A DNA stretch of 64,000 nt, from positions 57,830 through 121,829 of the IMG/VR virus record IMGVR_UViG_2822641076_000001; one strand, written 5' to 3'. Shown here piece after piece: positions 4,332 to 62,174 of this stretch. A program made the position numbers and the translations under genes. Below the pieces are notes generated by a model, which was given only the letters and a program-made list of their open reading frames with translations, did no database searches and had not been told where the DNA came from. Position 1 is the first letter of the stretch. Each line of letters begins with the position of its first letter. This DNA is from a virus. Taxonomy: Duplodnaviria; Heunggongvirae; Uroviricota; Caudoviricetes.

Positions 4332-5339
4332 ATGGAAAATAACAAAGATTTATATGCAGGATATAAAAACGAACGATATCTCCACTACAGAGAGGTTCAT
4401 ACAGGACAATTCACAACTCAAAATACTAGAAATGGCTCAAGACGTGTACCAATTAGAGAGCAACGTATTGTAGAGTTCGAAGAGATTAAAGCATTGAATC
4501 TTAACTCAATTGGTGAATGTGTTCCTACATTAGATGCAGAAGACTTCACTATGATTCAAAACTATCTGTTAGACTTTTGGGGAGCTGTATTAGGTGCAGA
4601 TTGCATTCAAGTGTATATCCATCTAAGACGTCATGCTTACGGCAAAAAAGACTTCTGCTTCCCTGACATAGACACTATTGCATTGAAGATGAAGAAGAGT
4701 AAGAACTTTGTAAAAGGATGTCTAAAGACTCTAGAAGAGCATAACTTCATTGTCATCTTTAACAGACGTGATACAAAGGATAACAATCGCTCTGTGAGTC
4801 CTCTATTCAAGATTAGAAGGTTTGTTCCTTTATTAACCAATGAACTTTATGAAGAATTGCCTGCTAAACTAAAAAAAGACCATGATACATATATGGAAGA
4901 TTATAAGGATATTGACATTGCGACTAATGAGCTAAAAAACAGTAAAGTAATCGAAGGGTTAATTGAAAACGCTGAGTTATTTAGAAGCAAATCTCAGATT
5001 CGTGAAGCCAAAGAAAAGATTGCAGAAGAAAATAAAGCAACATACATAAGAGAAAAAATTGCTCCTGAGTACATCGAAGCAGGAGAGCAGATTCTCACAT
5101 CTCTTCAAAGCAGAATTTCTAAACCATCATTCGATGTTTGGTTTAAGGATGCTGTACTTGCATTAGATTCAGAGAAAAAATCAGTCTACGTGTTATGCGC
5201 CCATGACTTTGCTAAAACACACGTTCAAGATAAGTTTAAGACAATTATCGCTGAAGAAGTTGGAAAGCAAATCGGATTCAACGTAGAAGATACAACATAC
5301 ATATTCAAAACACACGATGAATATATCGTAGAAATTTAA
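4332..5339 (+). CDS. putative replication initiator or replisome organiser (wHTH, DnaD-like N-terminal region; 335 aa)
   Basis: TAGGAGG SD. The central segment YIHLRRHAYGKKDFCFPDIDTIALKMKKSKNFVKGCLKTLEEHNFIVIF resembles the wHTH of DnaD/phage replisome-organiser N-domains. It lies directly upstream of the iteron and DnaA-box array. Confidence 0.4.
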   Translation: MENNKDLYAGYKNERYLHYREVHTGQFTTQNTRNGSRRVPIREQRIVEFEEIKALNLNSIGECVPTLDAEDFTMIQNYLLDFWGAVLGADCIQVYIHLRRHAYGKKDFCFPDIDTIALKMKKSKNFVKGCLKTLEEHNFIVIFNRRDTKDNNRSVSPLFKIRRFVPLLTNELYEELPAKLKKDHDTYMEDYKDIDIATNELKNSKVIEGLIENAELFRSKSQIREAKEKIAEENKATYIREKIAPEYIEAGEQILTSLQSRISKPSFDVWFKDAVLALDSEKKSVYVLCAHDFAKTHVQDKFKTIIAEEVGKQIGFNVEDTTYIFKTHDEYIVEI

Positions 5340-6637: not shown

Positions 6638-6766
6638 GCGAACATACACACACACATACATACATAGACTACGAAGATAGTCAGCTTAGACCAACTCAAA
6701 CAGTTGAGTCACAAGCAAGATAAGGAACATAAAAGTTACAAAGCTATAAAGGAGAAGTGGTACGAA

Positions 6767-7771
6767 ATGGATGAGCTAAAGAATGGTGAAAATGTAAAAG
6801 ACTTATTTTTAACTAATTATAATAACGATACAACTAAATCATACTACAATAGAATCTTCACTAAAGCCGAAATAATGGAAGAAACTTTAAATAAAGATTT
6901 ATATGATTTTACACTAGAAGAAATTGAAGAGCTTTTAATTCAATTACGTGGAAGCGCACAAGCAACAGAAGTTTACGGTCGTGTTATTTCAGCGTATATG
7001 AAGTGGGCAGTAGAAAATAACTACAAACAAACTAAAAATCCTCTATTAGATGTTAGCGCTAAATGGTTTGAAAATATCAGTGAAAATGTAAAGAACTTAT
7101 ATATAACTAAAAAACAATTATTAAAAATCGAATCAGATTGTTATAACTATCAAGACTCAGCAATAATTAGGTTATTATTTGAAGGAATTTGTGGAGAAAA
7201 AGCTATTGAAATTAGAGAACTAAAAAAGTCAGACGTAGAACAGGCTTTAGAGTTTATGCAAGAAAAGGGTCTTAATAGTGATATAGAAGATACAAAAGTA
7301 CCTTTAAATATTGGCGGAGCTTTCACAGAAGTTGATGCTCGTACTATACTCATGTTAGAACAAGCTATGCAAGAGAAGAGATATTGGAAGAAAAACGGAG
7401 ATATGGAACAAAGAGAGAATATCCGTGCTGTTACTGAATTAGTTGATAATGAATATGTATTCCGTCCTTCTATAACAAGAACAGGAAGTTATCATCAAGC
7501 TATTAAAGAATCTGTTATTTATAGACGTGTTAATTTAATTGGTGAAGTTCTAGGATATCCTCAATTAAAAACTAAAAGTATAATAAAAAGTGGTCAATTA
7601 TATATGGCTAAGAAAATTATGGAAGAAAAAGGCGAGTACTACCTAAGCACAGAAGATTATAAAAATATAGCGATTAGATTTGATATTAATAATTTCTATC
7701 CAATGAAAAAATATTGTAATGTTAAAAACATAAAAGAATTATATGGTGACTTTTTAGGACAAGACAAGTAA
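6767..7771 (+). CDS. hypothetical protein (334 aa; the track frame starts at 6704 with TTG)
   Basis: First ATG with an AAGGAG SD (long 12-nt spacing) is at 6767. The TTG at 6704 has no SD. No confident domain call. Confidence 0.45.
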   Translation: MDELKNGENVKDLFLTNYNNDTTKSYYNRIFTKAEIMEETLNKDLYDFTLEEIEELLIQLRGSAQATEVYGRVISAYMKWAVENNYKQTKNPLLDVSAKWFENISENVKNLYITKKQLLKIESDCYNYQDSAIIRLLFEGICGEKAIEIRELKKSDVEQALEFMQEKGLNSDIEDTKVPLNIGGAFTEVDARTILMLEQAMQEKRYWKKNGDMEQRENIRAVTELVDNEYVFRPSITRTGSYHQAIKESVIYRRVNLIGEVLGYPQLKTKSIIKSGQLYMAKKIMEEKGEYYLSTEDYKNIAIRFDINNFYPMKKYCNVKNIKELYGDFLGQDK

Positions 7772-7786
7772 GGAGCGATTCGAATA

Positions 7787-8059
7787 ATGGGTTATAAAGT
7801 TGAACATAAACTCGAAGCAAGGATGAATAAAGATAAATTCAAAATGTATTTAGAAAGAAAAAATATGAATGCAAAGCAATTGTGGGAGAAAATTGTTGAT
7901 GAGTATGGCATTCATATCAAATACAGGGGATTCATTGCTCTAATTAATAAACAAAACCTGTGGAAGTTAACCTATGCATATGTAATCTGCGAAGCCTTAG
8001 AGATAGATATTAAAGATATCTTCGAATTAAAGCCGACAGCGGAGGAAGGTGAAGAATGA
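7787..8059 (+). CDS. putative HTH transcriptional regulator (XRE-like; 90 aa)
   Basis: Segment KNMNAKQLWEKIVDEYGIHIKYRGFIALIN resembles a Cro/C1-type HTH. Confidence 0.35.
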   Translation: MGYKVEHKLEARMNKDKFKMYLERKNMNAKQLWEKIVDEYGIHIKYRGFIALINKQNLWKLTYAYVICEALEIDIKDIFELKPTAEEGEE

Positions 8060-9006: not shown

Positions 9007-9027
9007 ACAAGTGTAAAAAATAATGAA
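9007..9027 (+). promoter_or_regulatory. canonical 21-bp phage motif ACAAGTGTAAAAAATAATGAA (putative phage-specific promoter)
   Basis: Exact copy 9 bp upstream of the SD of the SSB-like gene. Confidence 0.5.
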
Positions 9028-12815: not shown

Positions 12816-13550
12816 ATGACAGTGCAAATAGATGAACTACAAGTTATAGAAGAACAAGATTTAACATTACCCGAAAATGGATATAAATTAGTAGCTGAAA
12901 CGATACATAAATATTTTACTTACTATCCTTATTACGAGAAGACACATGGATACACATTCGATGATTTAATGCAATTTGGAATCATTGGGTGGATGAAATC
13001 ATTAGATGCTCATGACGAATCAAAAGGTAAACTTTCAACAATAGCTGTTAGATATATTCGAACTGAAATCTATAATGCAGTGCGAAGTACATATAAAGGT
13101 GTTCGAGTGAGTTACGAGGTTACACGGATTGCGAAATATATGCGTAAGCATCGGGGGAAGAAAACCCTGCAAGAAGTTCAGAAGAAATTTGATGCGTCGG
13201 ATGAAGTTATGAAAAGAGCTTTGTCATTTATGGATATGACAGTGATGAGCCTTGAAATAAAAGTGGGCGAGAGCAATAGAGGAGAGAGTAGAAAGTTAAT
13301 TGACATGATTAGTGATGAGAACGCTCATCATGATATGGAATTAGCAGGTCTCAAAACAGGACTCTCCAAGCGATTAGCTGTCGTATCTGAAACTCAAAGA
13401 ACTTGCATCTTACTTCGGTTACAAGGGTACACCCCAACGGAGATTGGGAAGATGTTGGGAAAGAGTACTGCAACTGTATCAATGCAAATTCATCATGGTA
13501 CAACAAAAATTAATAAAGTGTTCAATCACTCGATTGAAAATGTCGCATAA
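12816..13550 (+). CDS. sigma-70 family sigma factor (244 aa)
   Basis: Region-2-like segment FGIIGWMKSLDAHDESKGKLSTIAVRYIRTEIYNAVRS, and a region-4 HTH in ETQRTCILLRLQGYTPTEIGKMLGKSTATVSMQIHHGTTKI. Confidence 0.75.
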   Translation: MTVQIDELQVIEEQDLTLPENGYKLVAETIHKYFTYYPYYEKTHGYTFDDLMQFGIIGWMKSLDAHDESKGKLSTIAVRYIRTEIYNAVRSTYKGVRVSYEVTRIAKYMRKHRGKKTLQEVQKKFDASDEVMKRALSFMDMTVMSLEIKVGESNRGESRKLIDMISDENAHHDMELAGLKTGLSKRLAVVSETQRTCILLRLQGYTPTEIGKMLGKSTATVSMQIHHGTTKINKVFNHSIENVA

Positions 13551-22725: not shown

Positions 22726-22929
22726 ATGAAAGAACAATTGAAAAATAACTTTACACATCACCCACCGAAAGAGGGACAAGTAGAGAAGTATGTAGATATT
22801 AGAAATGAAGCTTTACATTTTGCTAACTTAATTGATAGCTTATGTCCTAACAGCCGTGAGAAGTCATTAGCTATCACGAAGATTGAAGAAGCTGTATTTT
22901 GGGCTAACGCATCAATCGCACGTAATTAA
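22726..22929 (+). CDS. hypothetical protein (67 aa)
   Basis: GAGAGGAG SD before the ATG at 22726 (internal to track ORF 22666..22929). Confidence 0.45.
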   Translation: MKEQLKNNFTHHPPKEGQVEKYVDIRNEALHFANLIDSLCPNSREKSLAITKIEEAVFWANASIARN

Positions 22930-23540: not shown

Positions 23541-23730
23541 TATATATCTTGTAAGCAAAACAAATCAAAGCTTACACAGAACATAAGTTGAATTACTTTT
23601 TTATACTATTTCCTATTATTTTTTCGAGTTTGGGTTTTTAAAAGTTTGTCTCATGAAGTAAAGAAATTACTACCAACTAACTACAACACACACAACAAAA
23701 CACCTGCTAGTGGCGTTAGCAGATGAGGAA

Positions 23731-23760
23731 GAGGGCTTTGCGAAAGCGAAGCTCTTTTTC
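23731..23760 (+). terminator. terminator with GAAA tetraloop (gctttgc-gaaa-gcgaagc, then tcttttt)
   Basis: 7-bp stem extendable by G-U pairs, a GNRA loop and a T5 run. Confidence 0.55.
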
Positions 23761-23765
23761 GTTAT

Positions 23766-23794
23766 TTGACGTAATATTATATCAAAGGTATAAT
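23766..23794 (+). promoter_or_regulatory. sigma-A promoter TTGACG-17-TATAAT inside the noncoding region
   Basis: Near-consensus. The only thing downstream before the next terminator is about 65 nt of noncoding sequence. Confidence 0.55.
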
Positions 23795-23800
23795 AAGAAA

Positions 23801-23865
23801 TCATAGGCGTGTATTGCAAAATACACAGAAGAAGAACCTTCCAGTCGGAGGGTTCTTTTTTGTTT
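23801..23865 (+). ncRNA. candidate ~65-nt small RNA (promoter, then hairpin gtgtat-tgcaaa-atacac, then terminator)
   Basis: Bounded by the promoter at 23766-23794 and a strong terminator (gaaccttcc agtc ggagggttc, then T6) at 23834-23862. No ORF or SD. Confidence 0.35.
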
Positions 23866-23899
23866 AAAAGATGAGTTTTATACAAATATAATGTTTTAA

Positions 23900-23919
23900 T
23901 AAGTGTAAAAAATAATGAA
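23900..23919 (+). promoter_or_regulatory. motif copy (tAAGTGTAAAAAATAATGAA) 8 bp upstream of a sigma-A -35 box
   Basis: Motif and sigma-A promoter in tandem. Confidence 0.5.
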
Positions 23920-23927
23920 ATTTATTG

Positions 23928-23956
23928 TTGACTTATGCTCATATGTGAAATATAAT
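23928..23956 (+). promoter_or_regulatory. sigma-A promoter TTGACT-17-TATAAT
   Basis: Consensus boxes 30 bp upstream of the 23986 start. Confidence 0.6.
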
Positions 23957-23985
23957 GAACATATACCTTTTAGGAGGGAATAAAT

Positions 23986-24129
23986 ATGTGCTTAGTAATC
24001 GTAGGAATCATACTTACTATGGCTCTTCTACTTGGTATCTTAGGCATGTTCATCGGAAGTGGTTGGGGAGTTATTACTCTCACATTACTAGTCGTATGTG
24101 CATACTATGTATTCTTTAAAAAATACTGA
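23986..24129 (+). CDS. small membrane protein (47 aa)
   Basis: TAGGAGGG SD. Two TM segments. Below the ORF-track cutoff. Confidence 0.5.
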
Positions 24130-24152
24130 GGGATGAGTCATTGTCCTTCATT

Positions 24153-24173
24153 ACAAGTGTAAAAAATAATGAA
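24153..24173 (+). promoter_or_regulatory. canonical motif copy
   Basis: ttACAAGTGTAAAAAATAATGAA, 15 bp before the 24188 start. Confidence 0.5.
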
Positions 24174-24187
24174 ACGAGGGATAAACA

Positions 24188-24769
24188 ATGAACGTAACAA
24201 AACATTTCAAAAGACGATATGCTCAGCGTATCAAGAACATCAAAGGGAAAGAAGAAATCAGCTTATTCGTAACTACGAATCAAGACAAGATTTCCGAGGA
24301 CGCCAAAAAGATGATGGAACATGCCATCTTCATTTGGAAGGGACAGTTGGGTGAATCAAATATCACTCGAAATTTCTATATTAACGGTGACATCATTTTA
24401 GTAGCTGACACAGACAACACAGCGTTAGTTACATTATATAAAACGGATTACGGTTATCCTGACAAAACAAACCGCAAGATTGCAAAAGATTTACTTGAGA
24501 ATATTCAAGGTTTAAATGCAGAACTAGAAGTTGCTGAATTAGCAATGCAAGAGGAATTAAATAAGGTGGATATTGAGATTGATAGTTTAGATGTTCAATT
24601 GAAATCTTTAAAAGCTCAAGCAGAGTTAGTGGAAAGCCGAAAGAAAGCGAAAGTAAGTGAGCGCAAGTCATTATTCACTAAAACTCGTACTGTGAAGGAA
24701 GAGATTGAGAAGTTCGCCAAGATGCTATGCAACTCAATTGAGTACAAAGTTGACGTAAAAGAGATGTAA
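24188..24769 (+). CDS. hypothetical coiled-coil protein (193 aa)
   Basis: GAGGGA SD. The C-terminal half is heptad-rich. Confidence 0.5.
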   Translation: MNVTKHFKRRYAQRIKNIKGKEEISLFVTTNQDKISEDAKKMMEHAIFIWKGQLGESNITRNFYINGDIILVADTDNTALVTLYKTDYGYPDKTNRKIAKDLLENIQGLNAELEVAELAMQEELNKVDIEIDSLDVQLKSLKAQAELVESRKKAKVSERKSLFTKTRTVKEEIEKFAKMLCNSIEYKVDVKEM

Positions 24770-24773
24770 TTGG

Positions 24774-24998
24774 ATGTTTAAGTGGCTTAGATGGCTTAAA
24801 AGCTGTGAACACGATTGGAAGCGTCTCGATGAAGAAAGAGAATTAGTTTGGACAGGATACACTCACAAAAGTGAGATAAAGATTATATGCTTTTGTCCTA
24901 AGTGCAAAGACACTATGAAGGTGAGTACTAGGAAATGGATGCAGTATCTAAGAAAGCGTGAAATTATAGAGGAATATAAAAAACAGAATAAAGAATAG
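24774..24998 (+). CDS. small zinc-ribbon protein (74 aa)
   Basis: CEHDW...CFCPKC cysteine pairs. Confidence 0.45.
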   Translation: MFKWLRWLKSCEHDWKRLDEERELVWTGYTHKSEIKIICFCPKCKDTMKVSTRKWMQYLRKREIIEEYKKQNKE

Positions 24999-25008
24999 AG
25001 GTGTTCGA

Positions 25009-26145
25009 ATGCAGTTCACTTTAGCAGATTATAAGAAGTTTCAACTTGAAAAAGAAGAGGGCTACATTACTGAGAAACGACATCCTTGGTTTAAGAATCT
25101 AGTAATTCTCAATTACACGAACCGAGCAGTTGTTGACCGTCGATGGAACAACGAAACGATGATGGCACGAGGATTAATCCTTGATACGAATACATTAGAG
25201 GTAGTTGCTAAGCCGTTTCCAAAGTTCTTTAATATGGATGAGAATTTAGAGTATCAGCGTGATATTCCACGATGTGACTGTAATCCACCAACGCTAACCG
25301 TGAAGCAGGATGGTTCACTAGGTATCAGTTACATGATGGGTAATGCTTTATTTTGGGCTACTAGAGGTTCTTTTGAATCCAAACAGGCATTTATTGCGAA
25401 TGAGATTTGGGATAGAAAATATGCTACCAAAATCATTAAGGATGAAAAGCTCCGTGAAACGCTACGAGGAATCACTTTATTAGTTGAAATCATTGACCCT
25501 AAGACACGAATTGTCGTGGATTACGAAGGAATGTCTGACTTAATTCTTATTGGAGCTGTTGACATTCGAGGTAAGTTCCCGATTGATTTAACAATGGATT
25601 CGTTAAAAGCTATTGGTCAAATGTTAGATATGCCTGTGACCGAGCAAGTAGATTTAACAATAGATGAAGCAATCAAAATGAAGAGTGAAATTCCTGCTAA
25701 TGAAGAAGGTTGGGTATTGCAGTGGGATAATGGCAAGCGATTGAAAGTAAAGGGCGATGATTATATGGCTGTACACCGTGTAGCTTATGGATTATCACTC
25801 AAGCGAAAACTAGAGGCTTGGCACACTGGCAAAATGAAAGAATTAATCGAGCAAGTTCCCGAAGAGTTCCGTAAAGAAGTAGAAGCATTCCAAGATAATT
25901 GGGACGCACTTGCTATGACAATTACTGAAAACCTTCAATACATATTAGATGAGTGTCTTGCTAATGCAGAGACTCGTAAAGATTTTGCTACAAATGTAAA
26001 AAATAATGAATCTCTAGAGAAAAGATATCAATCTCTAATCTTCACTGGTTATGACACGAAGAAGATTAACATTGATGTAATCAAGATGTATATCTACAAA
26101 AACTACAGAGATTTCATCGAAGAGGGAGAAGAAGAAGATGCTTAA
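25009..26145 (+). CDS. ATP-dependent RNA ligase, T4 Rnl1 (RnlA)-like (378 aa)
   Basis: Motif I [10 protein letters not shown] aligns with T4 Rnl1 KEDGSLVSTY. Upstream ARGLILD...[15 protein letters not shown] matches [43 protein letters not shown] matches KGSIKSEQALMAN. Motif IV/V is [16 protein letters not shown]. Size matches Rnl1. Confidence 0.8.
   Translation: [378 protein letters not shown]
25990..26010 (+). promoter_or_regulatory. intragenic motif copy (ACAAaTGTAAAAAATAATGAA) inside the RNA ligase CDS, 128 bp before the kinase/HD gene
   Basis: The element is encoded within ...[13 protein letters not shown]... A possible internal promoter. Confidence 0.4.
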
Positions 26146-27142
26146 ATTCATGATGATGGTAGGCATCCCTGCAAGCGGAAAATCAACGTTCGCAGAGCTT
26201 CTAGCGGAACAAGATGACGCAATTCTACTTTCCTCTGACGTTGTTGGTAAAGAGTTACATGGTGAAGACAATGAACGCAATAACGAAGAGGTGTTTGCTC
26301 TAATGTTTGAGCGAACCGTAGAAGCTCTAATGCAAGGGAAGAGTGTTGTATATGATGCAACAAATATCAATCGTAACCGTAGAATCGGATTACTTCAACG
26401 ACTTAACCGTACTTTCAAAGCAACTGGTGCTATGAAGTTTGTATACTACATTAATACGGCTGTTGAGGTAGCTCTTTTAGATAATGGATTAAGAGGAAAA
26501 CCAGTACCACCTTTCGTGATTGAGCGCTCGTACAAGAGTTTAAATGTGCCAATCAAAGAGGAAGGTTGGGATGATGTATATATCATTCAGCGCCAAGAAG
26601 GTGTGTTTGATATTGAAGACCGCAAAGACATTATGAAGATTGTTCAAAGTGGCGGAACTCATGAGGAAATCATGACAGGTCTTATGGGGTATTTCCCTGA
26701 GTTCCTAGCCATGTATAACATGCCACAGGACTCGAAATATCATTCATTCTCTGTGAGTCGTCATGTATACCATGTATACAAATATGTCTTTGACAACTTT
26801 GATAATGGGAGTGAATATGACCGATTAGTGATGCTGTGGACTGCACTGCTTCATGATATCGGCAAACCATACTGTAAGAATTTTGAGAGCCGTGACGGTG
26901 AGGAAACACGCTATGCAAACTTCATCTCACATGAGAACGTAGGAGCGCAAATAGCTAGCTCAATTCTTGCTAAAGCAGTACATAATGATGATTTTATCCT
27001 TCAAGTTACTAAGCTGATTCAGTTCCATATGGTTCTGTTGAATGCAGGTGAAAAAGGAAAGAATCGACTAAGACGATTAGTTGGAGATAAAACATATGAG
27101 ATGCTAGAAATCTTGCGAGATGCAGATACTCTAGCACACTAA
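26138..27142 (+). CDS. polynucleotide 5'-kinase (P-loop) fused to an HD-domain phosphohydrolase (334 aa)
   Basis: N-terminal Walker A GIPASGKST (compare T4 Pnk GCPGSGKST). C-terminal HD signature WTALLHDIGKP with downstream His/Asp residues. Confidence 0.6.
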   Translation: MLKFMMMVGIPASGKSTFAELLAEQDDAILLSSDVVGKELHGEDNERNNEEVFALMFERTVEALMQGKSVVYDATNINRNRRIGLLQRLNRTFKATGAMKFVYYINTAVEVALLDNGLRGKPVPPFVIERSYKSLNVPIKEEGWDDVYIIQRQEGVFDIEDRKDIMKIVQSGGTHEEIMTGLMGYFPEFLAMYNMPQDSKYHSFSVSRHVYHVYKYVFDNFDNGSEYDRLVMLWTALLHDIGKPYCKNFESRDGEETRYANFISHENVGAQIASSILAKAVHNDDFILQVTKLIQFHMVLLNAGEKGKNRLRRLVGDKTYEMLEILRDADTLAH

Positions 27143-27154
27143 GGAGCGATTTAG

Positions 27155-27514
27155 ATGGGAAGTATTACATTTAACGGAAACACGTATTACGGTAATAGCA
27201 TCCACATCAGTAACGGAACAGTCATCATTGATGGTGTTGTTCAAGCTCAAGGACTAAAGGGACACTTAGACATTAAGGTTGAAGGAGATATCCGTGACTT
27301 AACAACGGATGCTCCAACAACTATTGATGGAAATGTATTAGGAAACCTACGAAGCAGAGGCTCTGTTACTTGTCGCAATGTACAGGGTTATGTAGATGCA
27401 GGCGGTAGCGTAACAGCTCATGACGTGGGTGGAGATATTGATGCAGGTGGCTCAGTTCGATGTGGTAGAGTCGGAGGTTCTATAGACGCAGGAGGAAGCG
27501 TCAGACACGGTTAG
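27155..27514 (+). CDS. bactofilin-like Gly-rich beta-helical repeat protein (119 aa)
   Basis: Repeats of x-G-x-V/I-x-G-x-I/V-D-A-G-G-S-V (GSVTAHDVGGDIDAGGSVRCGRVGGSIDAGGSVRHG) resemble the bactofilin/DUF583 fold. Confidence 0.4.
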   Translation: MGSITFNGNTYYGNSIHISNGTVIIDGVVQAQGLKGHLDIKVEGDIRDLTTDAPTTIDGNVLGNLRSRGSVTCRNVQGYVDAGGSVTAHDVGGDIDAGGSVRCGRVGGSIDAGGSVRHG

Positions 27515-27525
27515 GAGGAAAAACA

Positions 27526-27636
27526 ATGGGTTTTGTAATGGGATTCATTATAATCACAGGATGGTTAGCTGTTCTTGGATGTGGAATAGGTTATTTCATC
27601 CATTGGATGGAAACTAAGAATAGGAAGAGAAGATAA
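27526..27636 (+). CDS. tiny membrane peptide (36 aa), paralog of 27650..27778
   Basis: TAGGAGG SD. MGFVMGFIIITGWLAVLGCG... differs from the next ORF's MGFVGGFVVITGWLALIG... by only a few residues. Confidence 0.45.
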   Translation: MGFVMGFIIITGWLAVLGCGIGYFIHWMETKNRKRR

Positions 27637-27649
27637 CAGGAGGATTCAA

Positions 27650-27778
27650 ATGGGATTCGTAGGCGGATTTGTTGTAATCACAGGATGGCTAGCTCTCATT
27701 GGAACATCAGTGGTTTGTGCCATTAAATACTTTTGGGAATGGTGCGACGAGCGTTTTTTAGGAGAGTGTACTAAATGA
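27650..27778 (+). CDS. tiny membrane peptide (42 aa), paralog of 27526..27636
   Basis: CAGGAGG SD. Same N-terminal 18 aa pattern. Confidence 0.45.
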   Translation: MGFVGGFVVITGWLALIGTSVVCAIKYFWEWCDERFLGECTK

Positions 27779-27957
27779 AGTTTATCAAGTTTTTAAAAAG
27801 AAATCGCACTTTCATGATTGCTCTATGCGTTTGCAATTTCATGATAGGATTTGTAACGAGTTTTGATATGGTTTACTCCATTTTTTCAACTATATTTTCA
27901 ATGAGTTTTACATTAGCGGTTTTATATTTCATTGATAGAAAGGTTTTTGCGAAATGA
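27775..27957 (+). CDS. small membrane protein (60 aa)
   Basis: ATGA overlap. Two TM helices. Confidence 0.45.
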   Translation: MKFIKFLKRNRTFMIALCVCNFMIGFVTSFDMVYSIFSTIFSMSFTLAVLYFIDRKVFAK

Positions 27958-28151
27958 AGCTTATAAATTATATGGAGAAGAACATCTTCACTATCCTTGC
28001 AGTGGGCATCCTTAGCTTTGGCACAGGTTTAGCAGATAGCGGTGATGTACTTGCTTCAATTGCATCAACTTCTGTCTCATTAGGTGTAACAATACTAATT
28101 ATGTATGCAGTAGAGAATGCGGTTAAATCTTGGATGAGCAAGAAGCAATGA
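27954..28151 (+). CDS. small membrane protein (65 aa)
   Basis: ATGA overlap. Two TM helices. Confidence 0.45.
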   Translation: MKLINYMEKNIFTILAVGILSFGTGLADSGDVLASIASTSVSLGVTILIMYAVENAVKSWMSKKQ

Positions 28152-30230: not shown

Positions 30231-31307
30231 ATGGAAAAACAAATTATAGAATCAGCAAAACAAAACATTATAAAAATAGTAGACTCTTTAGAAGTTTCAA
30301 ATATAGACCAAGTTTACAGTGATGTTGTGAAATACTTAGACTTTGCAAAGGCTTATAGCCAACTACCTCATATCATCAATGGGTTAAATGAAGTGAGTGA
30401 AGAAGCGAATGAGCCTAATCAATCAAATGTCGTTAATTTAAGTGGAGATACAATTCAGCTACATACGGAGAACAAAATTGAGGGTTACGAGTTTAAGAGA
30501 AACATCAAAGGTGGCTATTTAGATGGAACGGATATATATGTTCCCGAAAAGTTCATCAGAGAACTTGGACTACAGCATGGAGACATTGTTAAAGCCGATA
30601 AGATTGGTGAAAAGCGATATAAATATACTGTGTTAGATGATTGTGGTTGTGATAGTTTATCCGATGTAATTTCGATTAAGATGGCTGTCGTAGAATACGA
30701 CCCTTCAAGTAATCGCTATACAGCTAGTAAGGATTGGATGGATAATCCTATTATGATTAACGGTCATAAAGCAGAGATTATTATCTCAGACAATGACTTT
30801 AGAAACTTTAGCATCATGACAGGGGATATTATTGATATCAGCGTAGATAAAAATGACCTTGATTTCAGTCGTGTTGTTTGGAAACATGCAACAACGGATG
30901 AATACAATAGACAGTATACATCAAGTATTAAAAGAGAACCTAAGAAGCCTATCATAGAGAAGAAGAAGCATGAGCAATTCTTCGCAGGTAAAAAGATTGT
31001 TATGGTTGGATTTGATGTAGAGAAAGCTAGTTTCAGAGATGCAGTTGAAAGACATGGTGGACAATTTGAATGTCTTCACGGAATGGAAGATGAATCAAGA
31101 TTTGAGGCAACTATGAAGGATGCAGATGCAGTTGTGCTAATGCTGAGCTTCGTTAAACATAGAGCTACTATCTTAGCAAATCAACTATGTAAAGATAATG
31201 GTATTCCATGTGATTCTTTACACACCAAGGGTAAAAGTGGATTTGTAAGAATGGCAAAAGAACTAATAGATAAGAAAGCAAAAGAGGTACATGTTACCTT
31301 AAAATAA
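30231..31307 (+). CDS. hypothetical protein (358 aa)
   Basis: Long ORF. The C-terminal region (KKIVMVGFDVEKASFRDAVERHGG...) is possibly Rossmann-like, but no confident call. Confidence 0.5.
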   Translation: MEKQIIESAKQNIIKIVDSLEVSNIDQVYSDVVKYLDFAKAYSQLPHIINGLNEVSEEANEPNQSNVVNLSGDTIQLHTENKIEGYEFKRNIKGGYLDGTDIYVPEKFIRELGLQHGDIVKADKIGEKRYKYTVLDDCGCDSLSDVISIKMAVVEYDPSSNRYTASKDWMDNPIMINGHKAEIIISDNDFRNFSIMTGDIIDISVDKNDLDFSRVVWKHATTDEYNRQYTSSIKREPKKPIIEKKKHEQFFAGKKIVMVGFDVEKASFRDAVERHGGQFECLHGMEDESRFEATMKDADAVVLMLSFVKHRATILANQLCKDNGIPCDSLHTKGKSGFVRMAKELIDKKAKEVHVTLK

Positions 31308-32512: not shown

Positions 32513-33337
32513 ATGAAGAAGAAGTTAATCAGCGCAACTTTAGCAGGCTTAATTATTGGCGGTGGTATCAGTGGAGCTGTAGTTCATCAAGCTTTCCCAA
32601 AGGAAGTTGTGAAGACTGAGGTTAAAACTGAACAGGTTGGTTCATTGGCTAAGCAAAATGCTATGGCTACCCTATGGACTCAATCATCTGCTGAGGCAAA
32701 CGCATTGCGTTTACAAGCGTATAACGTTGCTAAAGAGCGTGTAGATGAAGCTGTGAAAAATGGAATCGTTCATAAGGCTGTAGTACTCGATATTGATGAA
32801 ACAATTATCAACAATATGGACTACATGGCGTGGGCTGTAAAGAATGAGAAGAAATTCCCTGACCAATGGTCTGAGTGGATTAAATCTGCTCAAGGTGAAG
32901 AGATTGCAGGAGCAGTTGATTTCATTAAACATGCACAAGCAAATGGTGTAGAAGTATTCTTAGTTTCTAACCGAGACAAGAGCGAGATGGAAGGTACTCT
33001 AGAGAATCTGAAAAAGATTGGTTTAGGAGATATCGACCGTGAGCATATCATGCTAAAAGACAAGAGCTCTAGTAAGCAAGAACGCATGGATATGGTAGAA
33101 GTCAATCACAATGTATTACTGTACATTGGAGACAATCTAGCTGACCATAGCGATGATTTTTACAAGAAGAATGTCTCAGAGCGTGCAGAAGCACTGAAAG
33201 CTCATAAGGATGACTTCGGTACTAAATATATCATTCTTCCAAACTCTGCATATGGCGAGTGGGAAGGAACTATCTATAATCATGATTACAGCAAAGACCA
33301 AAATAAAGCACGAATGGATGCTTTAAAAGGATTCTAA
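32513..33337 (+). CDS. secreted or membrane-anchored HAD-IIIB acid phosphatase, 5'-nucleotidase e(P4)/class-B family (274 aa)
   Basis: Signal/TM segment, then motif I VVLDIDETIINN (DxDET), motif III FLVSNRD and motif IV IGDNLADHSDDF. Confidence 0.6.
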   Translation: MKKKLISATLAGLIIGGGISGAVVHQAFPKEVVKTEVKTEQVGSLAKQNAMATLWTQSSAEANALRLQAYNVAKERVDEAVKNGIVHKAVVLDIDETIINNMDYMAWAVKNEKKFPDQWSEWIKSAQGEEIAGAVDFIKHAQANGVEVFLVSNRDKSEMEGTLENLKKIGLGDIDREHIMLKDKSSSKQERMDMVEVNHNVLLYIGDNLADHSDDFYKKNVSERAEALKAHKDDFGTKYIILPNSAYGEWEGTIYNHDYSKDQNKARMDALKGF

Positions 33338-38797: not shown

Positions 38798-39253
38798 ATG
38801 GCATACGAAAATACAGGCGCAAAGAAGATTTATTTAGCATCACCTTTCTTCTGTGAGGAAGAAATTGAAAGAGTAGCATTCATGGAGAAGTTGTTACGTG
38901 AACAAGGATTCGATGTATTCTCTCCACGAGAAAATCAATTCGACCAGTACGAACTTTTCTCAAAAGAGTGGCGTGAAGCAGTTTACTTAAATGATATGAA
39001 ACACCTAATGGAAGCTGATATGGTAGTAGCTATTTATGATGGTGAAGGCGAAGGTTCTGACCAAGGAACAATCTTTGAAGTTGGAGCAGGTATCGTAGCA
39101 GGTAAATTTGTGATTGTATTCACAGAGAAGCATGATGGCATCAACTTAATGCTTACTGACTCTTGTCACGCATTCCTAAAAGGTCGTCAAGAAGCTCTAG
39201 ATTATGACTGGAAGAACCTACCGACTAACTACTGGCATGGCGGAGTTCGCTAA
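38798..39253 (+). CDS. nucleoside 2-deoxyribosyltransferase (151 aa)
   Basis: KIYLASPFF (NDT N-terminal motif) and the catalytic-Glu region DQGTIFEVGAG. Confidence 0.65.
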   Translation: MAYENTGAKKIYLASPFFCEEEIERVAFMEKLLREQGFDVFSPRENQFDQYELFSKEWREAVYLNDMKHLMEADMVVAIYDGEGEGSDQGTIFEVGAGIVAGKFVIVFTEKHDGINLMLTDSCHAFLKGRQEALDYDWKNLPTNYWHGGVR

Positions 39254-40006: not shown

Positions 40007-41197
40007 GTGCAGATTTTAATGTCAGTATTAGGTCTTATTGGTCTAATAGGATTAGCATTCTTGCTATCTGAAAATAAGAAGAAAATTAAGTGGCGAACAA
40101 TTGGAACGGCTTTAGCTATGCAATTCCTATTAGCCTACCTGCTAGTAACAAGTGCAGGTCAACAAGCAATGAAATGGTTATCGGATGGCTATACAAAAAT
40201 CTCAAGCTATGCAACAGATGGAATCATGTTTGTATTTGGCGGATTCTTTAATGAGCATACAACATTTGTATTTGCAATCAATGTATTGATGGTAATCGTA
40301 TTCTTTGGAGCGTTATTCGCTGTGTTATTCTATCTGAATGTCATTCAGTTCTTTGTTAAATATGTGGGCGGTGCATTATCTAAACTACTTGGTACTACAC
40401 GAGTAGAAACATTTAGTGCAGTTATGAATATCTTTGCCTCACAAAACGAAGTTCCGACATTCATTAAACCATATCTGAAACATCTGACGAAAGCAGAACT
40501 GTTCGCAGTAATGGTTGCAGGAACAGGCTCTATGGCAGGTTCAATCTTAATTGGATACAGCTTAATGGGTATCCCGTTAGAATGGTTGCTTGTAGCATGT
40601 TTCATGGTTACAGGTTCTAGTTTATTAGTGGCAAAACTAATTGTTCCCGAAACAGAGGAGAGCCAAACGAACGGCAAGATTGAGCTTGACCGTAAGCAAG
40701 GTTCAGCTAATATTTTTGAAGCAATTTCAAATGGTGCAATGAGCGGTATGCAAATTGCTTGTGCTACAGCTACAATGCTAATTGCTTTCGTAGCATTAAT
40801 TGCATTAGTAAATGGTATCTTAGGAAACTTTGGCGTATCACTTGAGCAGTTGCTTGGATACTTATTCTATCCACTTGCATTCCTAATGAATGTAAGCCAT
40901 GACCAAGTAATGACAGCAAGTCAATTATTAGGTCAGAAGTTCGCAACGAATGAGTTTATTGCTTATTCTGCAATGGCAAAAGAGATGTCACAGATGGATA
41001 CTCGTACAATTGCTATGTTAACTATTGGTATCGGTGGCTTCGCTAACTTCTCATCTATTGGTATTTTACTGGGAAGCATTGGTGTTCTTGTTCCTGAGAA
41101 ACGAGGTATTGTTGCTAAGTACGGACTTCGTGCGATTGTAGCAGGACTTTTAGCAAATTTAATCAGTGCAACTATCGTTGGTATTTGGTTGCTGTAA
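40007..41197 (+). CDS. nupC: concentrative nucleoside transporter, NupC family (396 aa, GTG start)
   Basis: At least nine predicted TM helices. CNT signature GQKFATNEFIAYSAMA (NEF[IV]AY). AGGAGG SD. Confidence 0.75.
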   Translation: MQILMSVLGLIGLIGLAFLLSENKKKIKWRTIGTALAMQFLLAYLLVTSAGQQAMKWLSDGYTKISSYATDGIMFVFGGFFNEHTTFVFAINVLMVIVFFGALFAVLFYLNVIQFFVKYVGGALSKLLGTTRVETFSAVMNIFASQNEVPTFIKPYLKHLTKAELFAVMVAGTGSMAGSILIGYSLMGIPLEWLLVACFMVTGSSLLVAKLIVPETEESQTNGKIELDRKQGSANIFEAISNGAMSGMQIACATATMLIAFVALIALVNGILGNFGVSLEQLLGYLFYPLAFLMNVSHDQVMTASQLLGQKFATNEFIAYSAMAKEMSQMDTRTIAMLTIGIGGFANFSSIGILLGSIGVLVPEKRGIVAKYGLRAIVAGLLANLISATIVGIWLL

Positions 41198-44179: not shown

Positions 44180-44368
44180 ATGAAATCTAGAGAACGTTTA
44201 GAGGTTGTAGGAAATTTTCAAAAGAAGACAACATGGTCTCATAGCAATGGATTTAAACAGAAATTATTCTTGAATGGTTTAGAGGTTGAGAACTACTTTA
44301 ACGGATTCGCAGGAAAAACGGTTAAGGTGACAGTCGAAGTCATAGATAGCCTTTCAAAGAATGATTGA
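44180..44368 (+). CDS. hypothetical protein (62 aa)
   Basis: TAGGAGAG SD. Confidence 0.45.
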   Translation: MKSRERLEVVGNFQKKTTWSHSNGFKQKLFLNGLEVENYFNGFAGKTVKVTVEVIDSLSKND

Positions 44369-44408
44369 AGAAAAGTACGATTTTATCCAACAAAGGAGCG
44401 AAACATCA

Positions 44409-45131
44409 ATGGTGAGTTTAATTGATTTAAGCAAGAAAGCACAGATAGTTTTAGAGAAAAAGGAAATCTTCGGTGAAAAGGCTCAAGTTGCAGTAGTCGA
44501 TGATATCTCTATTTCTATGGAAACACTCTACATGAACGGCACAATGCAAGAGCTAAACGATAGATTGCTAAGTATCGGTATGAATCTAGACGTCGATAAG
44601 AGCATTGATGTATTTGCGTTCGGTAAGCATTCACATGAGATTGGCACTGTAACAGAAGGGAATTATCAAGGGTTCATTAACAATGTTCTGCTACGAAAAG
44701 TGTCACTTGAAAGCTATACATACTACGCAGGAGTCATGGATAGAATCGTGAAGAAGTATGGTCAACCTGTGCAGAAACAAGGATTCCTTTCACGGCTAAT
44801 TGGAAGTAAACCTGCTGAAAAACCAACTGTGCCTACATTAGTATTCTTTGTAACAGACGGTGATAACTTTGACAAAGATGAAGCTGAAAAAATTATCCGT
44901 GAATCATCAAATCAAGCAATCTTTTGGCAGTTTATCGGAATTGGAAGAGCGAAATTTGAGTTCTTGGATAAGCTTAATAAAATGTCAGGAAGATTTCTAG
45001 ATAATGCAAACTTCTTCCACGTTAATGACTTACGTCAAATCAGTGATGAAGAGTTTATGAATAGAGTGCTAAATGAATTTCCACAGTGGATTAAAGAGGC
45101 ACGAAATAAAGGTGTGCTACAGGAGGGCTAA
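44409..45131 (+). CDS. von Willebrand factor A (vWA)-like protein (240 aa)
   Basis: MIDAS-like DxSxS in AVVDDISISMETL, plus a downstream TDGD motif. AAGGAG SD before the ATG at 44409 (the track starts at 44361). Confidence 0.4.
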   Translation: MVSLIDLSKKAQIVLEKKEIFGEKAQVAVVDDISISMETLYMNGTMQELNDRLLSIGMNLDVDKSIDVFAFGKHSHEIGTVTEGNYQGFINNVLLRKVSLESYTYYAGVMDRIVKKYGQPVQKQGFLSRLIGSKPAEKPTVPTLVFFVTDGDNFDKDEAEKIIRESSNQAIFWQFIGIGRAKFEFLDKLNKMSGRFLDNANFFHVNDLRQISDEEFMNRVLNEFPQWIKEARNKGVLQEG

Positions 45132-51618: not shown

Positions 51619-52920
51619 ATGGAAAATGTAATTGAAATTCTAGAGCGAATCAAAGCGGACTCTAGTAGAACTGTTAAGGAAACAATCTTGAAGCAACATA
51701 AGGATAATGAGGAGTTACGATATGTATTGGACTTCCTTTACAATCCATATGTTATTACAGGATTAAGCAAAAAGAAGGTTAATAAGAAGTTAAGCACAGA
51801 ACGATTTCTAGAGTTGCCTACTGAGCATAAATTTGAAAATGGATTAGATGTACTTGAATATTTAAAAGCTCACAATAGCGGTCGTGATAGCGACATTGCT
51901 GTAGTTCAATATTTCTTAGGTACATTAATGATTCCAAGTGAAATTGTATTCTTCAAGGAGCTGTTCACGAAGTCATTCAAGAGCGGTATCACTGCAAAGA
52001 CTATTAATAAAGCATTTGGAGAGAAATTCATTCCTGAGTTCAATGTACAGCTAGCTAAAGCTTACTCAGATGAGGCACGCAAGTTAACTGGTGAATTTGC
52101 TGTTACAGAGAAATTAGATGGAAACCGAGTGGTATGTGTTAAGGAGAATGGAACGATTAAATTCTTCACACGACAAGGGCAACCAGTACTAGATTTAGTT
52201 GAAATTACAGCAGAGATTGCACTGCTACCCGAAGGTTTTGTGTATGATGGAGAACTACTTCTTAAAAATGAAGAGGGATTATCAAGCGATGACCTATTCC
52301 GAGCTACGCAAAAGGTTGTTAGAAAAGACGGAGAGAAACTTGGTTTAACGTTCCATATCTTTGATATCTTAACAGCAGGTGAGTTCCATGAGGGACGTTC
52401 AAAGGTAATTTACAAGAAGCGTCGTAAGAAACTAATGGAAATCTTCAAATCTACATTTGTGCAGTTTAAGCATCTAGAACTAGTTCCACTGCTTTATGTT
52501 GGCTCAGATAAAGAGATGATTGCTCATTACCTCGACCAAATGATTGCAGAAAACAAAGAAGGTGTCATGGTAAACCGAGTAGATGGAGTTTACGAATGTA
52601 AGCGTACAAGTAATCTATTGAAAGTTAAGAAGATGCACACAGTTGACCTTACAATTCTTCGTATAGAAGAAGGAGATGGTAAGAACAAGGGTAAGCTAGG
52701 TGCAATGGTTGTTGATTATAAAGGATTTGAAGTCGGTGTAGGCTCAGGATTTACAGATGCAGAGCGAGTAGATTTTTGGTTCAATCAAGAAGACTATATC
52801 GGGAAAATTGCAGAGGTTCAGTTCTTTGAGGAGAGTACAAATCAGGATGGTGGAATTTCATTACGATTCCCAGTGTTCCGCACGATTCGTACAGACAAAG
52901 ACGAGCCAAGTTATATTTGA
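51619..52920 (+). CDS. ATP-dependent DNA ligase (433 aa)
   Basis: Motif I TEKLDGNRV (KxDG), motif III FVYDGELL, and motifs IV/V EGVMVNRVDGVYECKRTSNLLKVKK. A C-terminal OB-like region follows. Confidence 0.85.
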   Translation: MENVIEILERIKADSSRTVKETILKQHKDNEELRYVLDFLYNPYVITGLSKKKVNKKLSTERFLELPTEHKFENGLDVLEYLKAHNSGRDSDIAVVQYFLGTLMIPSEIVFFKELFTKSFKSGITAKTINKAFGEKFIPEFNVQLAKAYSDEARKLTGEFAVTEKLDGNRVVCVKENGTIKFFTRQGQPVLDLVEITAEIALLPEGFVYDGELLLKNEEGLSSDDLFRATQKVVRKDGEKLGLTFHIFDILTAGEFHEGRSKVIYKKRRKKLMEIFKSTFVQFKHLELVPLLYVGSDKEMIAHYLDQMIAENKEGVMVNRVDGVYECKRTSNLLKVKKMHTVDLTILRIEEGDGKNKGKLGAMVVDYKGFEVGVGSGFTDAERVDFWFNQEDYIGKIAEVQFFEESTNQDGGISLRFPVFRTIRTDKDEPSYI

Positions 52921-58591: not shown

Positions 58592-59026
58592 ATGGGAGTA
58601 GATTATTATGTTTGTAAGAGTTGCGAGGACACATTCTCTGATTGCGGATACTTTGTAAGTTGTATTTGCGGATATCGTTGGTGTTGTGACGAATGTGCAG
58701 AGAATGATGGAGTTGTAGCCGAGTTTGATGAGAAGACTGGGGAGAAGCTTGATGAAAGTGAGACTTGTAAATTCTGTAGAAATGAAGATTTCACTGACTG
58801 GGAACTGTTCAAGTTTGCACGAGCATTACTAGGCAAGAGTCGTGAGGAGGTAGTCGAGCTTTATAAAGAGATGGGTAAAACTGAGCCTAAGACAGTAACC
58901 ATCTCAAAAGGAGAATATGAAGGATTACTAGAGAGCCAACACTTCTTAAATTGTCTAGAAGCAATGGGAGTAGACAATTGGGGCGGTTATGGTGATGCTT
59001 GCGAGATGTCTGAAAGGGAGGAATAA
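58592..59026 (+). CDS. Cys-rich hypothetical protein (144 aa)
   Basis: GGAAGAG SD. Many CxxC pairs (CKSCED...CICGYRWCCDECAEND...CKFC). Confidence 0.5.
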   Translation: MGVDYYVCKSCEDTFSDCGYFVSCICGYRWCCDECAENDGVVAEFDEKTGEKLDESETCKFCRNEDFTDWELFKFARALLGKSREEVVELYKEMGKTEPKTVTISKGEYEGLLESQHFLNCLEAMGVDNWGGYGDACEMSEREE

Positions 59027-60870: not shown

Positions 60871-61680
60871 ATGATTAAGATTAATGGTGCAAGACTTGAT
60901 TTCTCAGAGTTTCCAAATGGTGAAACTAAAGTGGATGCAAAACTTATTAAAGCCAATGCTCATCCTACTAAGAATACCATCATGTTCAAATATGAAACAG
61001 ATGGAGATTTAATCAAATTAATGTTTGTTAAGAACTACCTAGACAATATGGGCTTAGATGCAGAATTGAAGATTATGTACATGCCTTACAGTCGTATGGA
61101 CAGAGTTGAAGGTGTTTCTGCATTTACTCTAAAGGATGTTGCAAACTTCATTAACAAGATGAAATTCAAGAAGGTCTATGTTTATGAAGCTCATTCAGAT
61201 GTAACACCTGCTCTATTAGACCGATGCGAGGTCATTGATTACTCTGAGCAAATTTTAGAGGATGTAATTGAAATCGTTGGGTTTGATGAGAAAAGAGATT
61301 ATGTTTTCTTCCCCGATGCAGGTGCATCTAAACGTTACAAGTCCGCTAAAAAGTATCGCCACCTTGTAGGTCACAAACAACGTGATTTCGATAGCGGAAA
61401 TATCGAAAGTCTTGAAGTGATGGGTGAAGTTGATGGCGCAGGATTCACAGCAATTATTGTGGACGACCTTTGCTCATTTGGTGGCACATTCTTTCGAAGC
61501 GCTACAGAGTTAAAGAAATTAGGAGCTTCTAGAATCTATCTAGTAGTCACTCACTGTGAAAACTCTATTTACAAAGGTGAGTTATTAAAGACTGATTTGA
61601 TTGATGGAATTTTTACAACTGACAGCATCTTGAATGAAGAAGAGTATGACGACAGATTGTGGGTGCGTCCATTACTATGA
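60871..61680 (+). CDS. prs: ribose-phosphate pyrophosphokinase (PRPP synthetase) family protein (269 aa)
   Basis: PRPP/PRTase-binding loop AIIVDDLCSFGGTF (VDDxxxTGGT type). N-terminal Prs-like fold (FSEFPNGETKVD..., KIMYMPYSRMDR resembling PYfgYaRQDR). Somewhat shorter than canonical Prs. Confidence 0.65.
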   Translation: MIKINGARLDFSEFPNGETKVDAKLIKANAHPTKNTIMFKYETDGDLIKLMFVKNYLDNMGLDAELKIMYMPYSRMDRVEGVSAFTLKDVANFINKMKFKKVYVYEAHSDVTPALLDRCEVIDYSEQILEDVIEIVGFDEKRDYVFFPDAGASKRYKSAKKYRHLVGHKQRDFDSGNIESLEVMGEVDGAGFTAIIVDDLCSFGGTFFRSATELKKLGASRIYLVVTHCENSIYKGELLKTDLIDGIFTTDSILNEEEYDDRLWVRPLL

Positions 61681-62159: not shown

Positions 62160-62174
62160 AAGGGGCTAATAATT

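Follow-up and report, generated by a model that had tools for sequence, protein, structure and literature searches.

What does a phage gain from two overlapping genes, one resembling an RNA ligase and the other joining a polynucleotide kinase to a phosphohydrolase? The genes lie at positions 25009 to 27142 of a 64,000-nucleotide stretch of DNA, referred to here as the window, which comes from a virus of the class Caudoviricetes (positions 57,830 to 121,829 of the IMG/VR record IMGVR_UViG_2822641076_000001). An earlier sequence-only reading of the window had proposed that they form an RNA repair cassette. We consider it probable that the two genes constitute an RNA heal-and-seal module, whose role is most likely counter-defence: reversal of the cleavage of tRNA or other RNA, as carried out by T4 Pnkp and Rnl1 against the nuclease PrrC. 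Comparison of positions 24000-28000 with GenBank phages and PLSDB plasmids by megablast gave no match at the DNA level. The cassette was therefore identified at the protein level, and its features are as follows.

25009-26145, plus strand: open reading frame 1 (ORF1), 378 amino acids, encoding an Rnl1-family ATP-dependent RNA ligase with a nucleotidyltransferase domain (residues 1 to about 255) and an all-helical C-terminal domain (about 285-377).
25303-25314, plus strand: ligase motif I, K99-Q-D101-G102, containing the adenylylation lysine and aligned to K99-E-D-G of T4.
26138-27142, plus strand: ORF2, 334 amino acids, encoding the predicted end-healing enzyme Pnk-HD; it shares 8 nt (ATGCTTAA) with the end of the ligase ORF, and the AlphaFold2 (AF2) model has a predicted local distance difference test score (pLDDT) of 92.7 and a predicted template modeling score (pTM) of 0.91.
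26138-26602, plus strand: predicted 5'-OH polynucleotide kinase domain, amino acids 1-155, with the P-loop G9-x4-G14-K15-S16 (26162-26188), the general base Asp34, Asp73 and the lid residue Arg119.
26246-26248, plus strand: codon for Gly37, at the position of the acceptor-phosphate arginine Arg38 of T4 Pnkp; Lys38 is next.
26660-27139, plus strand: HD (HDIG-type) phosphohydrolase domain, amino acids 175-334, with the metal ligands H209, H239-D240 (26852-26857), H265, H297 and D330.

The ORF1 product matched the Pfam family RNA_lig_T4_1 (PF09511) with an E value of 2.9e-19 (70.3 bits, against a curated cutoff of 28.3), PHROG 562 with 5.6e-64, covering 14-373 of 378 residues, and T4 Rnl1 in the PDB (2c5u) with 9e-17, with residues 52-373 aligned. 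We compared it with the residues reported as essential in T4 Rnl1 by mutagenesis work of the Shuman laboratory. R54 of T4 corresponds to R54 of the window ligase, K75 and F77 to K72 and F74, K99-x-D101-G102 to K99-Q-D101-G102, E159 to E160, E227-G228 to E233-G234, and K240 and K242 to K246 and K248, while T4 K119 is replaced conservatively by R119. Judged from this alignment, all of the T4 Rnl1 catalytic residues are present, and R54, K72, K99, D101, G102, E160, E233, G234, K246 and K248 are invariant in 55 ligase homologues. The ratio of nonsynonymous to synonymous substitution (dN/dS) was 0.09 against a sister lineage of 88% identity (dS of about 0.5). The predicted structure (AF2, pLDDT 93.9) had 2c5u as its best Foldseek match (E=6.9e-20, 393 columns, including the helical C-terminal domain) and the fungal tRNA ligase Trl1 as its second. 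Helices 285-377 of the model form a T4 Rnl1-type all-helical C-terminal domain, which in T4 Rnl1 is the tRNA-specificity domain. Superposition on T4 Rnl1 gave only a moderate TM-score (0.58) with a large root mean square deviation (rmsd); therefore, the model suggests that the inter-domain orientation differs from that of the T4 enzyme. PHROG labels also raise a T4 gp63-like function in tail-fibre attachment, and we rejected this as the primary role of the ligase, having found no support for it in the replication module of a siphophage.

The N-terminal part of ORF2 matched Pfam AAA_33 (residues 5-96, E=8.5e-16) and, over the kinase part, the NCBIfam bacterial Pnkp model. The C-terminal part matched Pfam HD (residues 202-332, E=5.4e-8) and NCBIfam HDIG (5.6e-9), both above cutoff. 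No HAD/DxDxT domain was found in ORF2 with Pfam or NCBIfam, and PHROG 505 matched the kinase part only (positions 1-147). All three profiles named in the sequence-only reading, RNA_lig_T4_1, AAA_33 and HD, thus matched, far beyond what chance would give, and both ORFs lie exactly at the coordinates it had assigned. Its assignments of a T4 Rnl1-like ligase and of a P-loop kinase fused to HD rather than to HAD are fully borne out by profiles, catalytic residues, predicted structures and gene linkage. The label "Pnk-type" for the kinase fits the P-loop, Asp34, Arg119 and the fold, but it needs qualifying at one position.

Foldseek comparison of the kinase domain placed Clostridium thermocellum Pnk first (TM-score 0.75, rmsd 2.3 Å), together with mammalian PNKP, archaeal PSTK, T4 Pnk and the fungal Trl1 kinase. 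G9, G14, K15, D34, D73 and R119 are invariant among 55 homologues. In an alignment with T4 Pnkp, for which the reference sequence was confirmed to be identical to PDB 1ly1, D34 and R119 pair with D35 and R126. The essential kinase residues of T4 Pnkp are K15, S16, D35, R38, D85 and R126 (PMC2831316). The window enzyme has K15, S16, D34, D73 and R119, but the counterpart of R38 is Gly37, so the set is incomplete. Position 37 is an arginine in 53 of 55 family members, whereas every close relative has the Gly37-Lys38 pair (L002; L011 at 95% identity; L008, L009 and L010 at 88%). Mammalian PNKP also lacks a counterpart of Arg38, yet it remains active as a polynucleotide kinase, requiring longer acceptors (PMC2831316). 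In comparison with the 88% lineage (dS of about 0.5), dN/dS was 0.13 for Pnk-HD overall, 0.17 for the kinase domain and 0.10 for the HD domain, which indicates that the kinase domain is still held by purifying selection. Gly37 may thus reflect a shift in acceptor recognition rather than decay.

In the HD domain, none of the 55 homologues departs from the metal ligands H209, H239-D240, H265, H297 and D330 or from a D198-S-x2-H202 motif. The domain matched the HD region of CCA tRNA nucleotidyltransferases (TIGR02692) with 1.1e-14 and PDB 3wfp, a CCA-family tRNA enzyme, with 5e-5. By sequence similarity, CCA-family tRNA enzymes carry the HD domains nearest to it outside the polynucleotide kinases (PNKs). 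The class II CCA-adding enzymes, such as Escherichia coli Cca, have a related HD domain; the window HD domain lacks their nucleotidyltransferase head and is fused to a kinase instead. The HD domain of E. coli Cca reportedly (Yakunin and colleagues, 2004, cited in PMC2190708) has 2',3'-cyclic phosphodiesterase, 2'-nucleotidase and phosphatase activities. A second candidate for 3'-end healing, an ORF at 32513-33337 on the plus strand, was considered as a separate T4-like 3'-phosphatase and rejected. It matched the phosphatase part of Pnkp PHROGs weakly and is a class B acid phosphatase by Pfam (HAD IIIB, 4e-42); since it adjoins the genes for NrdI and ribonucleotide reductase (RNR), it is more likely a nucleotidase or otherwise involved in nucleotide metabolism.

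The replacement of HAD by HD in such enzymes is already known. Some 20 years ago, a PNKP subfamily was proposed in which a 5'-kinase is combined with a 3'-HD phosphohydrolase, and an HD-borne 3'-phosphatase was demonstrated for the PNK of Rhodothermus phage RM378 (PMC1997131). HD-Pnk of Runella was characterised as a 2',3'-phosphoesterase and 5'-kinase whose ORF overlaps the 3' end of an upstream ATP-dependent ligase ORF (PMC6097658). A comparative-genomics review describes HD-like phosphatases replacing HAD in some phage RNA repair systems (PMC7824862), and the orthologous pair in Thrax and Tsamsa was annotated as PNK and RNA ligase, with citation of the T4/PrrC precedent (PMC9703825). When the halves of the window enzyme were scanned alone, both had PHROG 6931 as their best match. 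The kinase half aligned to positions 186-338 (1.4e-22, against a weaker 1.5e-15 for T4-type Pnkp), and the HD half aligned to positions 23-153 (3.5e-14, against a far weaker 3e-4 for tRNA nucleotidyltransferase). PHROG 6931 is defined (3.9e-127) by RM378 p110, annotated as a "probable poly A polymerase," in which the HD domain occupies residues 35-94 and the kinase residues 189-325. Each half also matched the RM378 PNK in pairwise BLAST (2e-6), and the domains are homologous at just 26-32% identity. In the window enzyme, the kinase (1-155) precedes HD (175-334), the reverse of RM378. Because the halves match PHROG 6931 in swapped order, we regard the window enzyme as a domain-order permutation of the RM378/Runella type. 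Phage RM378 likewise encodes an Rnl1-family ligase, but there roughly 6.5 kb separates the ligase gene from the PNK gene, which lies on the other strand.

Runella slithyformis HD-Pnk shares the bifunctional composition, an HD 2',3'-phosphoesterase with a P-loop 5'-OH kinase, and the overlap with a ligase ORF. It differs in its HD(N)-Pnk(C) order, in a non-Rnl1 partner ligase that sealed none of the substrates tested, and in its location in a bacterial operon together with genes for Tpt1 and MTase-HIT. T4 Pnkp and Rnl1 follow the same logic, in which a 5'-kinase and a 3'-end phosphoesterase are paired with an Rnl1 ligase; the kinase-first order is common to both systems, as are the ligase catalytic residues and the C-terminal helical domain. 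In contrast to T4, the 3'-end domain in the window is a metal-dependent HD rather than HAD/DxDxT, the kinase lacks an Arg38 equivalent, the ligase and kinase genes are adjacent and overlapping, and a PrrC-type target is suggested by analogy only. Closest are the Tsamsa/Thrax-like Bacillus siphophages (Joanripponvirinae), which have the same pair in the same order with the same Pnk-then-HD architecture, adjacent or overlapping, at 43-48% amino acid identity. In Tsamsa, gp174 (RNA ligase) and gp175 stand in the same order as in the window, with a 4-nt overlap. The window lineage differs from Tsamsa and Thrax in having no DNA-level similarity to them, in having Gly37 in place of arginine, and in a promoter-like motif within the ligase gene. 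The DNA ligase gene lies 24.5 kb from the pair in the window and 1-2 kb from it in the Tsamsa/Thrax relatives. The order kinase-then-HD occurs widely (371 homologues at E<=1e-5) and, as far as the searchable literature shows, has no biochemical characterisation.

Gene linkage was assessed in 37 IMG/VR loci encoding a Pnk-HD relative of 28-95% identity, with a neighbour window of 6 kb. An Rnl1 homologue was present in 27 of these. Since Pnk-HD stands at the contig edge in 4 of the 10 loci without Rnl1, only 33 loci with upstream sequence are informative, and in these the proportion is 27/33. When all neighbouring ORFs were clustered, Rnl1 was the only partner that persisted into distant relatives, down to 28% Pnk-HD identity.

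We infer how the module may operate. The N-terminal P-loop domain of Pnk-HD would phosphorylate a 5'-OH end, while its C-terminal HD metal-dependent phosphoesterase would open and remove a 2',3'-cyclic phosphate or 3'-phosphate, so that a 3'-OH remains. The ligase, of Rnl1 type, would then self-adenylylate at Lys99, pass AMP to the 5'-phosphate and seal the break. The cleavage opposed in this way, probably of tRNA, would come from the host or from competing elements. The 8-nt gene overlap may couple translation such that both enzymes are co-expressed. We favour counter-defence on the basis of the T4 precedent, of other anti-defence genes in the window and of PrrC and RloC systems predicted in Bacillus cereus-group genomes (PMC11811056). 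Among the anti-defence genes, an ORF at 22726-22929 (plus strand, 67 aa), 2 kb upstream of the cassette, encodes an Acb2/Tad1 hairpin protein (Pfam PF24729, E=1e-22) that is likely a cyclic-nucleotide sponge acting against CBASS or Thoeris. Directly after the DNA polymerase gene, an ORF at 58592-59026 (plus strand, 144 aa) encodes a protein whose C-terminal part matches the T7 gp5.9 RecBCD-inhibitor domain (PF25708, 1.1e-18). RloC lesions are expected to resist repair of the Pnkp/Rnl1 type (PMC3458546). The sequence-only reading went further and held that the cassette implies a host tRNA-targeting defence; that wording is too strong, and we suggest such a defence only by inference from the gene pair.

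Several observations weigh against RNA repair as counter-defence. The ligase scored 82 bits against the T4 RnlA equivalog model NCBIfam TIGR02308, below its cutoff of 242.25, so it is a divergent member of the Rnl1 family rather than a close T4 orthologue. As the Arg38 equivalent, essential in T4, is missing, the 5'-kinase activity may be weakened or its acceptor needs altered. A tRNA scan found no tRNA genes in the window, and there were no Rfam RNAs at gathering thresholds. A fill-in nucleotidyltransferase (RlaP/CCA), RtcB, 2H and Hen1 were likewise found neither in the window nor recurring across the loci. The remaining points count at the same time for a different explanation, in which the genes serve the replication and repair of the phage as a DNA or dual DNA/RNA end-processing module: Pnk-HD would clean 5'-OH/3'-phosphate DNA ends for the ATP-dependent DNA ligase of the phage, and Rnl1 would have a separate role. 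A DNA ligase gene lies within 6 kb of Pnk-HD in 21/37 loci, often 1-2 kb downstream, and two loci with full flanks and Tsamsa-like synteny (L012 and L021) have Pnk-HD and DNA ligase with no Rnl1 within 6 kb, which shows that the healing enzyme can persist without the RNA ligase. Characterised HD-Pnk enzymes act on DNA ends too (PMC6097658, PMC1997131), the Runella enzyme being described as a DNA/RNA end-healer (PMC6097658) and the Deinococcus radiodurans enzyme as phosphorylating DNA (PMC1997131). The missing Arg38 equivalent parallels mammalian PNKP, a DNA-end kinase (PMC2831316), and the cassette lies in an arm of replication and nucleotide metabolism genes (helicase, primase, RecJ, RNR, DNA ligase and DNA polymerase). 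However, the DNA ligase gene of the window (51619-52920) is 24.5 kb from the cassette, whereas Rnl1 overlaps Pnk-HD, and linkage to DNA ligase is confined to Tsamsa-like synteny, whereas that to Rnl1 extends to 28% identity. The HD domain is also of the tRNA-enzyme (CCA) type, and the sequence neighbours of the kinase include the tRNA kinase PSTK and RNA-repair Pnkp. We consider this DNA-end explanation unlikely.

Housekeeping RNA processing for the phage itself, such as repair of collateral damage by phage RNases or maturation or splicing of phage RNAs, would call for the same enzymology as counter-defence, and we can name no cognate host nuclease. The temperate, plasmid-like traits of the element (a ParM-like actin, an MrpR recombinase, a DnaA_N/HTH protein and identical proteins in isolate assemblies) fit such a role as well, as long residence could favour RNA maintenance. 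Yet neither tRNA genes nor Rfam RNAs occur in the window, anti-defence genes lie nearby, and the published precedent for phage Rnl1 with PNK is counter-defence (PMC9703825, PMC7824862); housekeeping is thus rather unlikely. A further possibility is that HD acts mainly on another substrate, for example immune signals made of cyclic nucleotides or cyclic oligoadenylates, or 2',3'-cyclic nucleotides, and that the kinase is degenerate, making Pnk-HD a signal-degrading anti-defence enzyme and no end-healer. The HD family includes cyclic-dinucleotide phosphodiesterases; the key kinase arginine is replaced by glycine in the sub-clade of the window, the Acb2/Tad1-like sponge gene is 2 kb upstream, and Pnk-HD may have an independent promoter. 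Set against this are the arginine kept in 53/55 members, the intact P-loop, Asp34 and Arg119, purifying selection on the kinase (dN/dS 0.17), the tight and widespread Rnl1 linkage, and closest HD relatives that are tRNA-enzyme HD domains and the RM378 PNK; we regard this explanation as highly improbable. Elements of these readings could also be joined: the kinase-first Bacillales-phage enzymes may form a functionally distinct end-healing class, with Gly37 in the B. cereus-group sub-clade of the window retuning the kinase to another substrate, such as ends of long structured RNA or of DNA in the manner of mammalian PNKP, and with the conserved intragenic promoter expressing Pnk-HD apart from the ligase. 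HD would then act alone as well, for example in an anti-defence activity of its own that strips 2',3'-cyclic phosphates from RNA or signalling molecules. We find this combination quite doubtful. RNA heal-and-seal as counter-defence remains the explanation that we prefer.

The last of these proposals draws on an expression signal that lies inside the ligase gene, and the relevant features around the cassette are listed here.

23727-24172, plus strand: upstream control region, with a strong intrinsic terminator (23727-23760), two sigma-A-like promoters and two motif copies.
24188-24998, plus strand: two closely packed upstream genes, of 193 aa (phrog_17222) and 74 aa (zinc-ribbon-like).
25990-26010, plus strand: intragenic motif copy ACAAaTGTAAAAAATAATGAA, within the ligase gene, 129 nt before the Pnk-HD start codon.
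27155-27514, plus strand: downstream gene, 119 aa (phrog_3163), with weak similarity to the FapA beta-solenoid; it starts 12 nt past Pnk-HD.

A 21-nt strand-specific motif, ACAAGTGTAAAAAATAATGAA, recurs throughout the window (for example, at 9012, 10129, 12713, 12791, 23904, 24158, 25995, 33342, 37999, 52926, 54913, 55374, 58559, 60841 and 63938). With no more than one mismatch, its 15-mer core occurred in 26 copies, all on the plus strand and almost all shortly before genes, where 0.05 were expected by chance; with up to three mismatches there were 48 copies, none on the minus strand, nearly all intergenic and 5-100 nt upstream of start codons. Outside the 21 nt, information content drops sharply, and a fixed -35 element is lacking. 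Some copies directly abut the ribosome-binding site, and those at 58, 1021, 6565, 23904, 30072 and 41248 precede a sigma-A -35 box by about 9 nt. The motif is probably a phage-specific promoter or regulatory site. A gene for a sigma-70-family factor with regions 2 and 4 (12816-13550, plus strand) is preceded by two exact copies (12713 and 12791), and its product is a candidate reader of the motif.

The copy that the sequence-only reading had noted at 25990 is real: the 21-nt element spans 25990-26010 and contains the exact 15-mer core TGTAAAAAATAATGA at 25995-26009. It is exactly conserved in L011 (95%), L008 (88%) and L009, and the stretch that holds it, 62 nt without a difference from L008, is the longest such run in the ligase gene; in this comparison only 11% of 22-nt windows are free of differences. 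This conservation fits a functional internal promoter, as had been proposed for the kinase gene, but falls short of proof. A scan with the sigma-70 consensus showed no enrichment over shuffled sequence and no plus-strand site near 25990; therefore, an internal promoter, if there is one, would be the phage-specific motif and not a sigma-A site. Such a promoter may allow transcription of Pnk-HD and the downstream genes without the ligase.

Upstream of the cassette, the two near-consensus sigma-A promoters occupy 23766-23794 and 23928-23956; the motif copies there span 23904-23918 and 24158-24172. Five closely packed genes follow at 24188-27514, with successive gaps of 4, 10, -8 and 12 nt. The 193-aa and 74-aa genes are probably co-transcribed with the cassette. 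They are not conserved partners of it, being missing beside the Tsamsa pair and not recurring across loci. The Shine-Dalgarno sequence of the Pnk-HD gene, GAGGGAG, is situated within the ligase gene's 3' end, and the acidic C-terminal tail of the ligase, EEGEEEDA (26110-26145), is the in-frame reading of this region. In the sister lineage L008 (88%; 7955-8015), the ligase stop comes 8 codons earlier, and both the tail and the gene overlap are gone.

We next consider the element that carries the cassette. Every long ORF of the window is on the plus strand, and GC skew is positive throughout. The replication genes encode a DnaB helicase, a primase, RecJ, a DNA ligase and a PolIII-alpha-like polymerase, and those for nucleotide metabolism encode RNR with NrdI, dUTPase, dTMP kinase, thymidine kinase, and phosphoribosyl pyrophosphate (PRPP) synthetase with NAMPT. 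NCBI lists a protein identical to the ORF2 product, under the name "AAA family ATPase [Bacillus cereus group]", on a contig of 153.6 kb. Another identical protein is encoded on a JGI contig of 152.6 kb, which over the cassette departs from the window at 5 nt. Among named phages, those most similar in their proteins are Tsamsa/Thrax/Izhevsk/FADO-like Bacillus siphophages of 160-170 kb, at 43-48% identity. The plus-strand genes at 1757-2968, 4332-5339 and 6704-7771 encode a ParM-like actin (a weak match), a helix-turn-helix (HTH) and DnaA_N protein, and an MrpR-type tyrosine recombinase, a set for plasmid-style maintenance and multimer resolution. These maintenance genes, together with the identical proteins on contigs of about 153 kb from B. 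cereus-group isolates, suggest that the element is an extrachromosomal, plasmid-like prophage. The carrier is probably a large (about 150-kb) temperate B. cereus-group phage of plasmid-like habit.

These results leave current understanding unchanged and add one more large Bacillus phage with RNA heal-and-seal enzymes. The HD-for-HAD exchange having been described before, the local peculiarities are modest: the permuted domain order relative to characterised HD-Pnk, Gly at the T4 Arg38 site, and the conserved intragenic promoter-like motif. A protein named at NCBI only "AAA family ATPase / HD domain-containing protein" gains a specific annotation, and the Arg-to-Gly change found in nature lends itself to a test of structure and function. 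The module also lends support to the view that RNA-cleaving defences, such as PrrC-like nucleases, exert real selection in the B. cereus group.

Elsewhere in the window, an unusual auxiliary gene set was noted on the plus strand, encoding a NupC-type Na+/nucleoside transporter (40007-41197), a nucleoside 2-deoxyribosyltransferase (38798-39253), a vWA-TerF-like protein (44361-45131), and PRPP synthetase with NAMPT for NAD salvage (60871-63923). The plus-strand ORF at 30231-31307 encodes a 358-aa protein that combines a Rho-type RNA-binding domain (2.1e-7) with DUF2325 (5.7e-14) and had no PHROG match.

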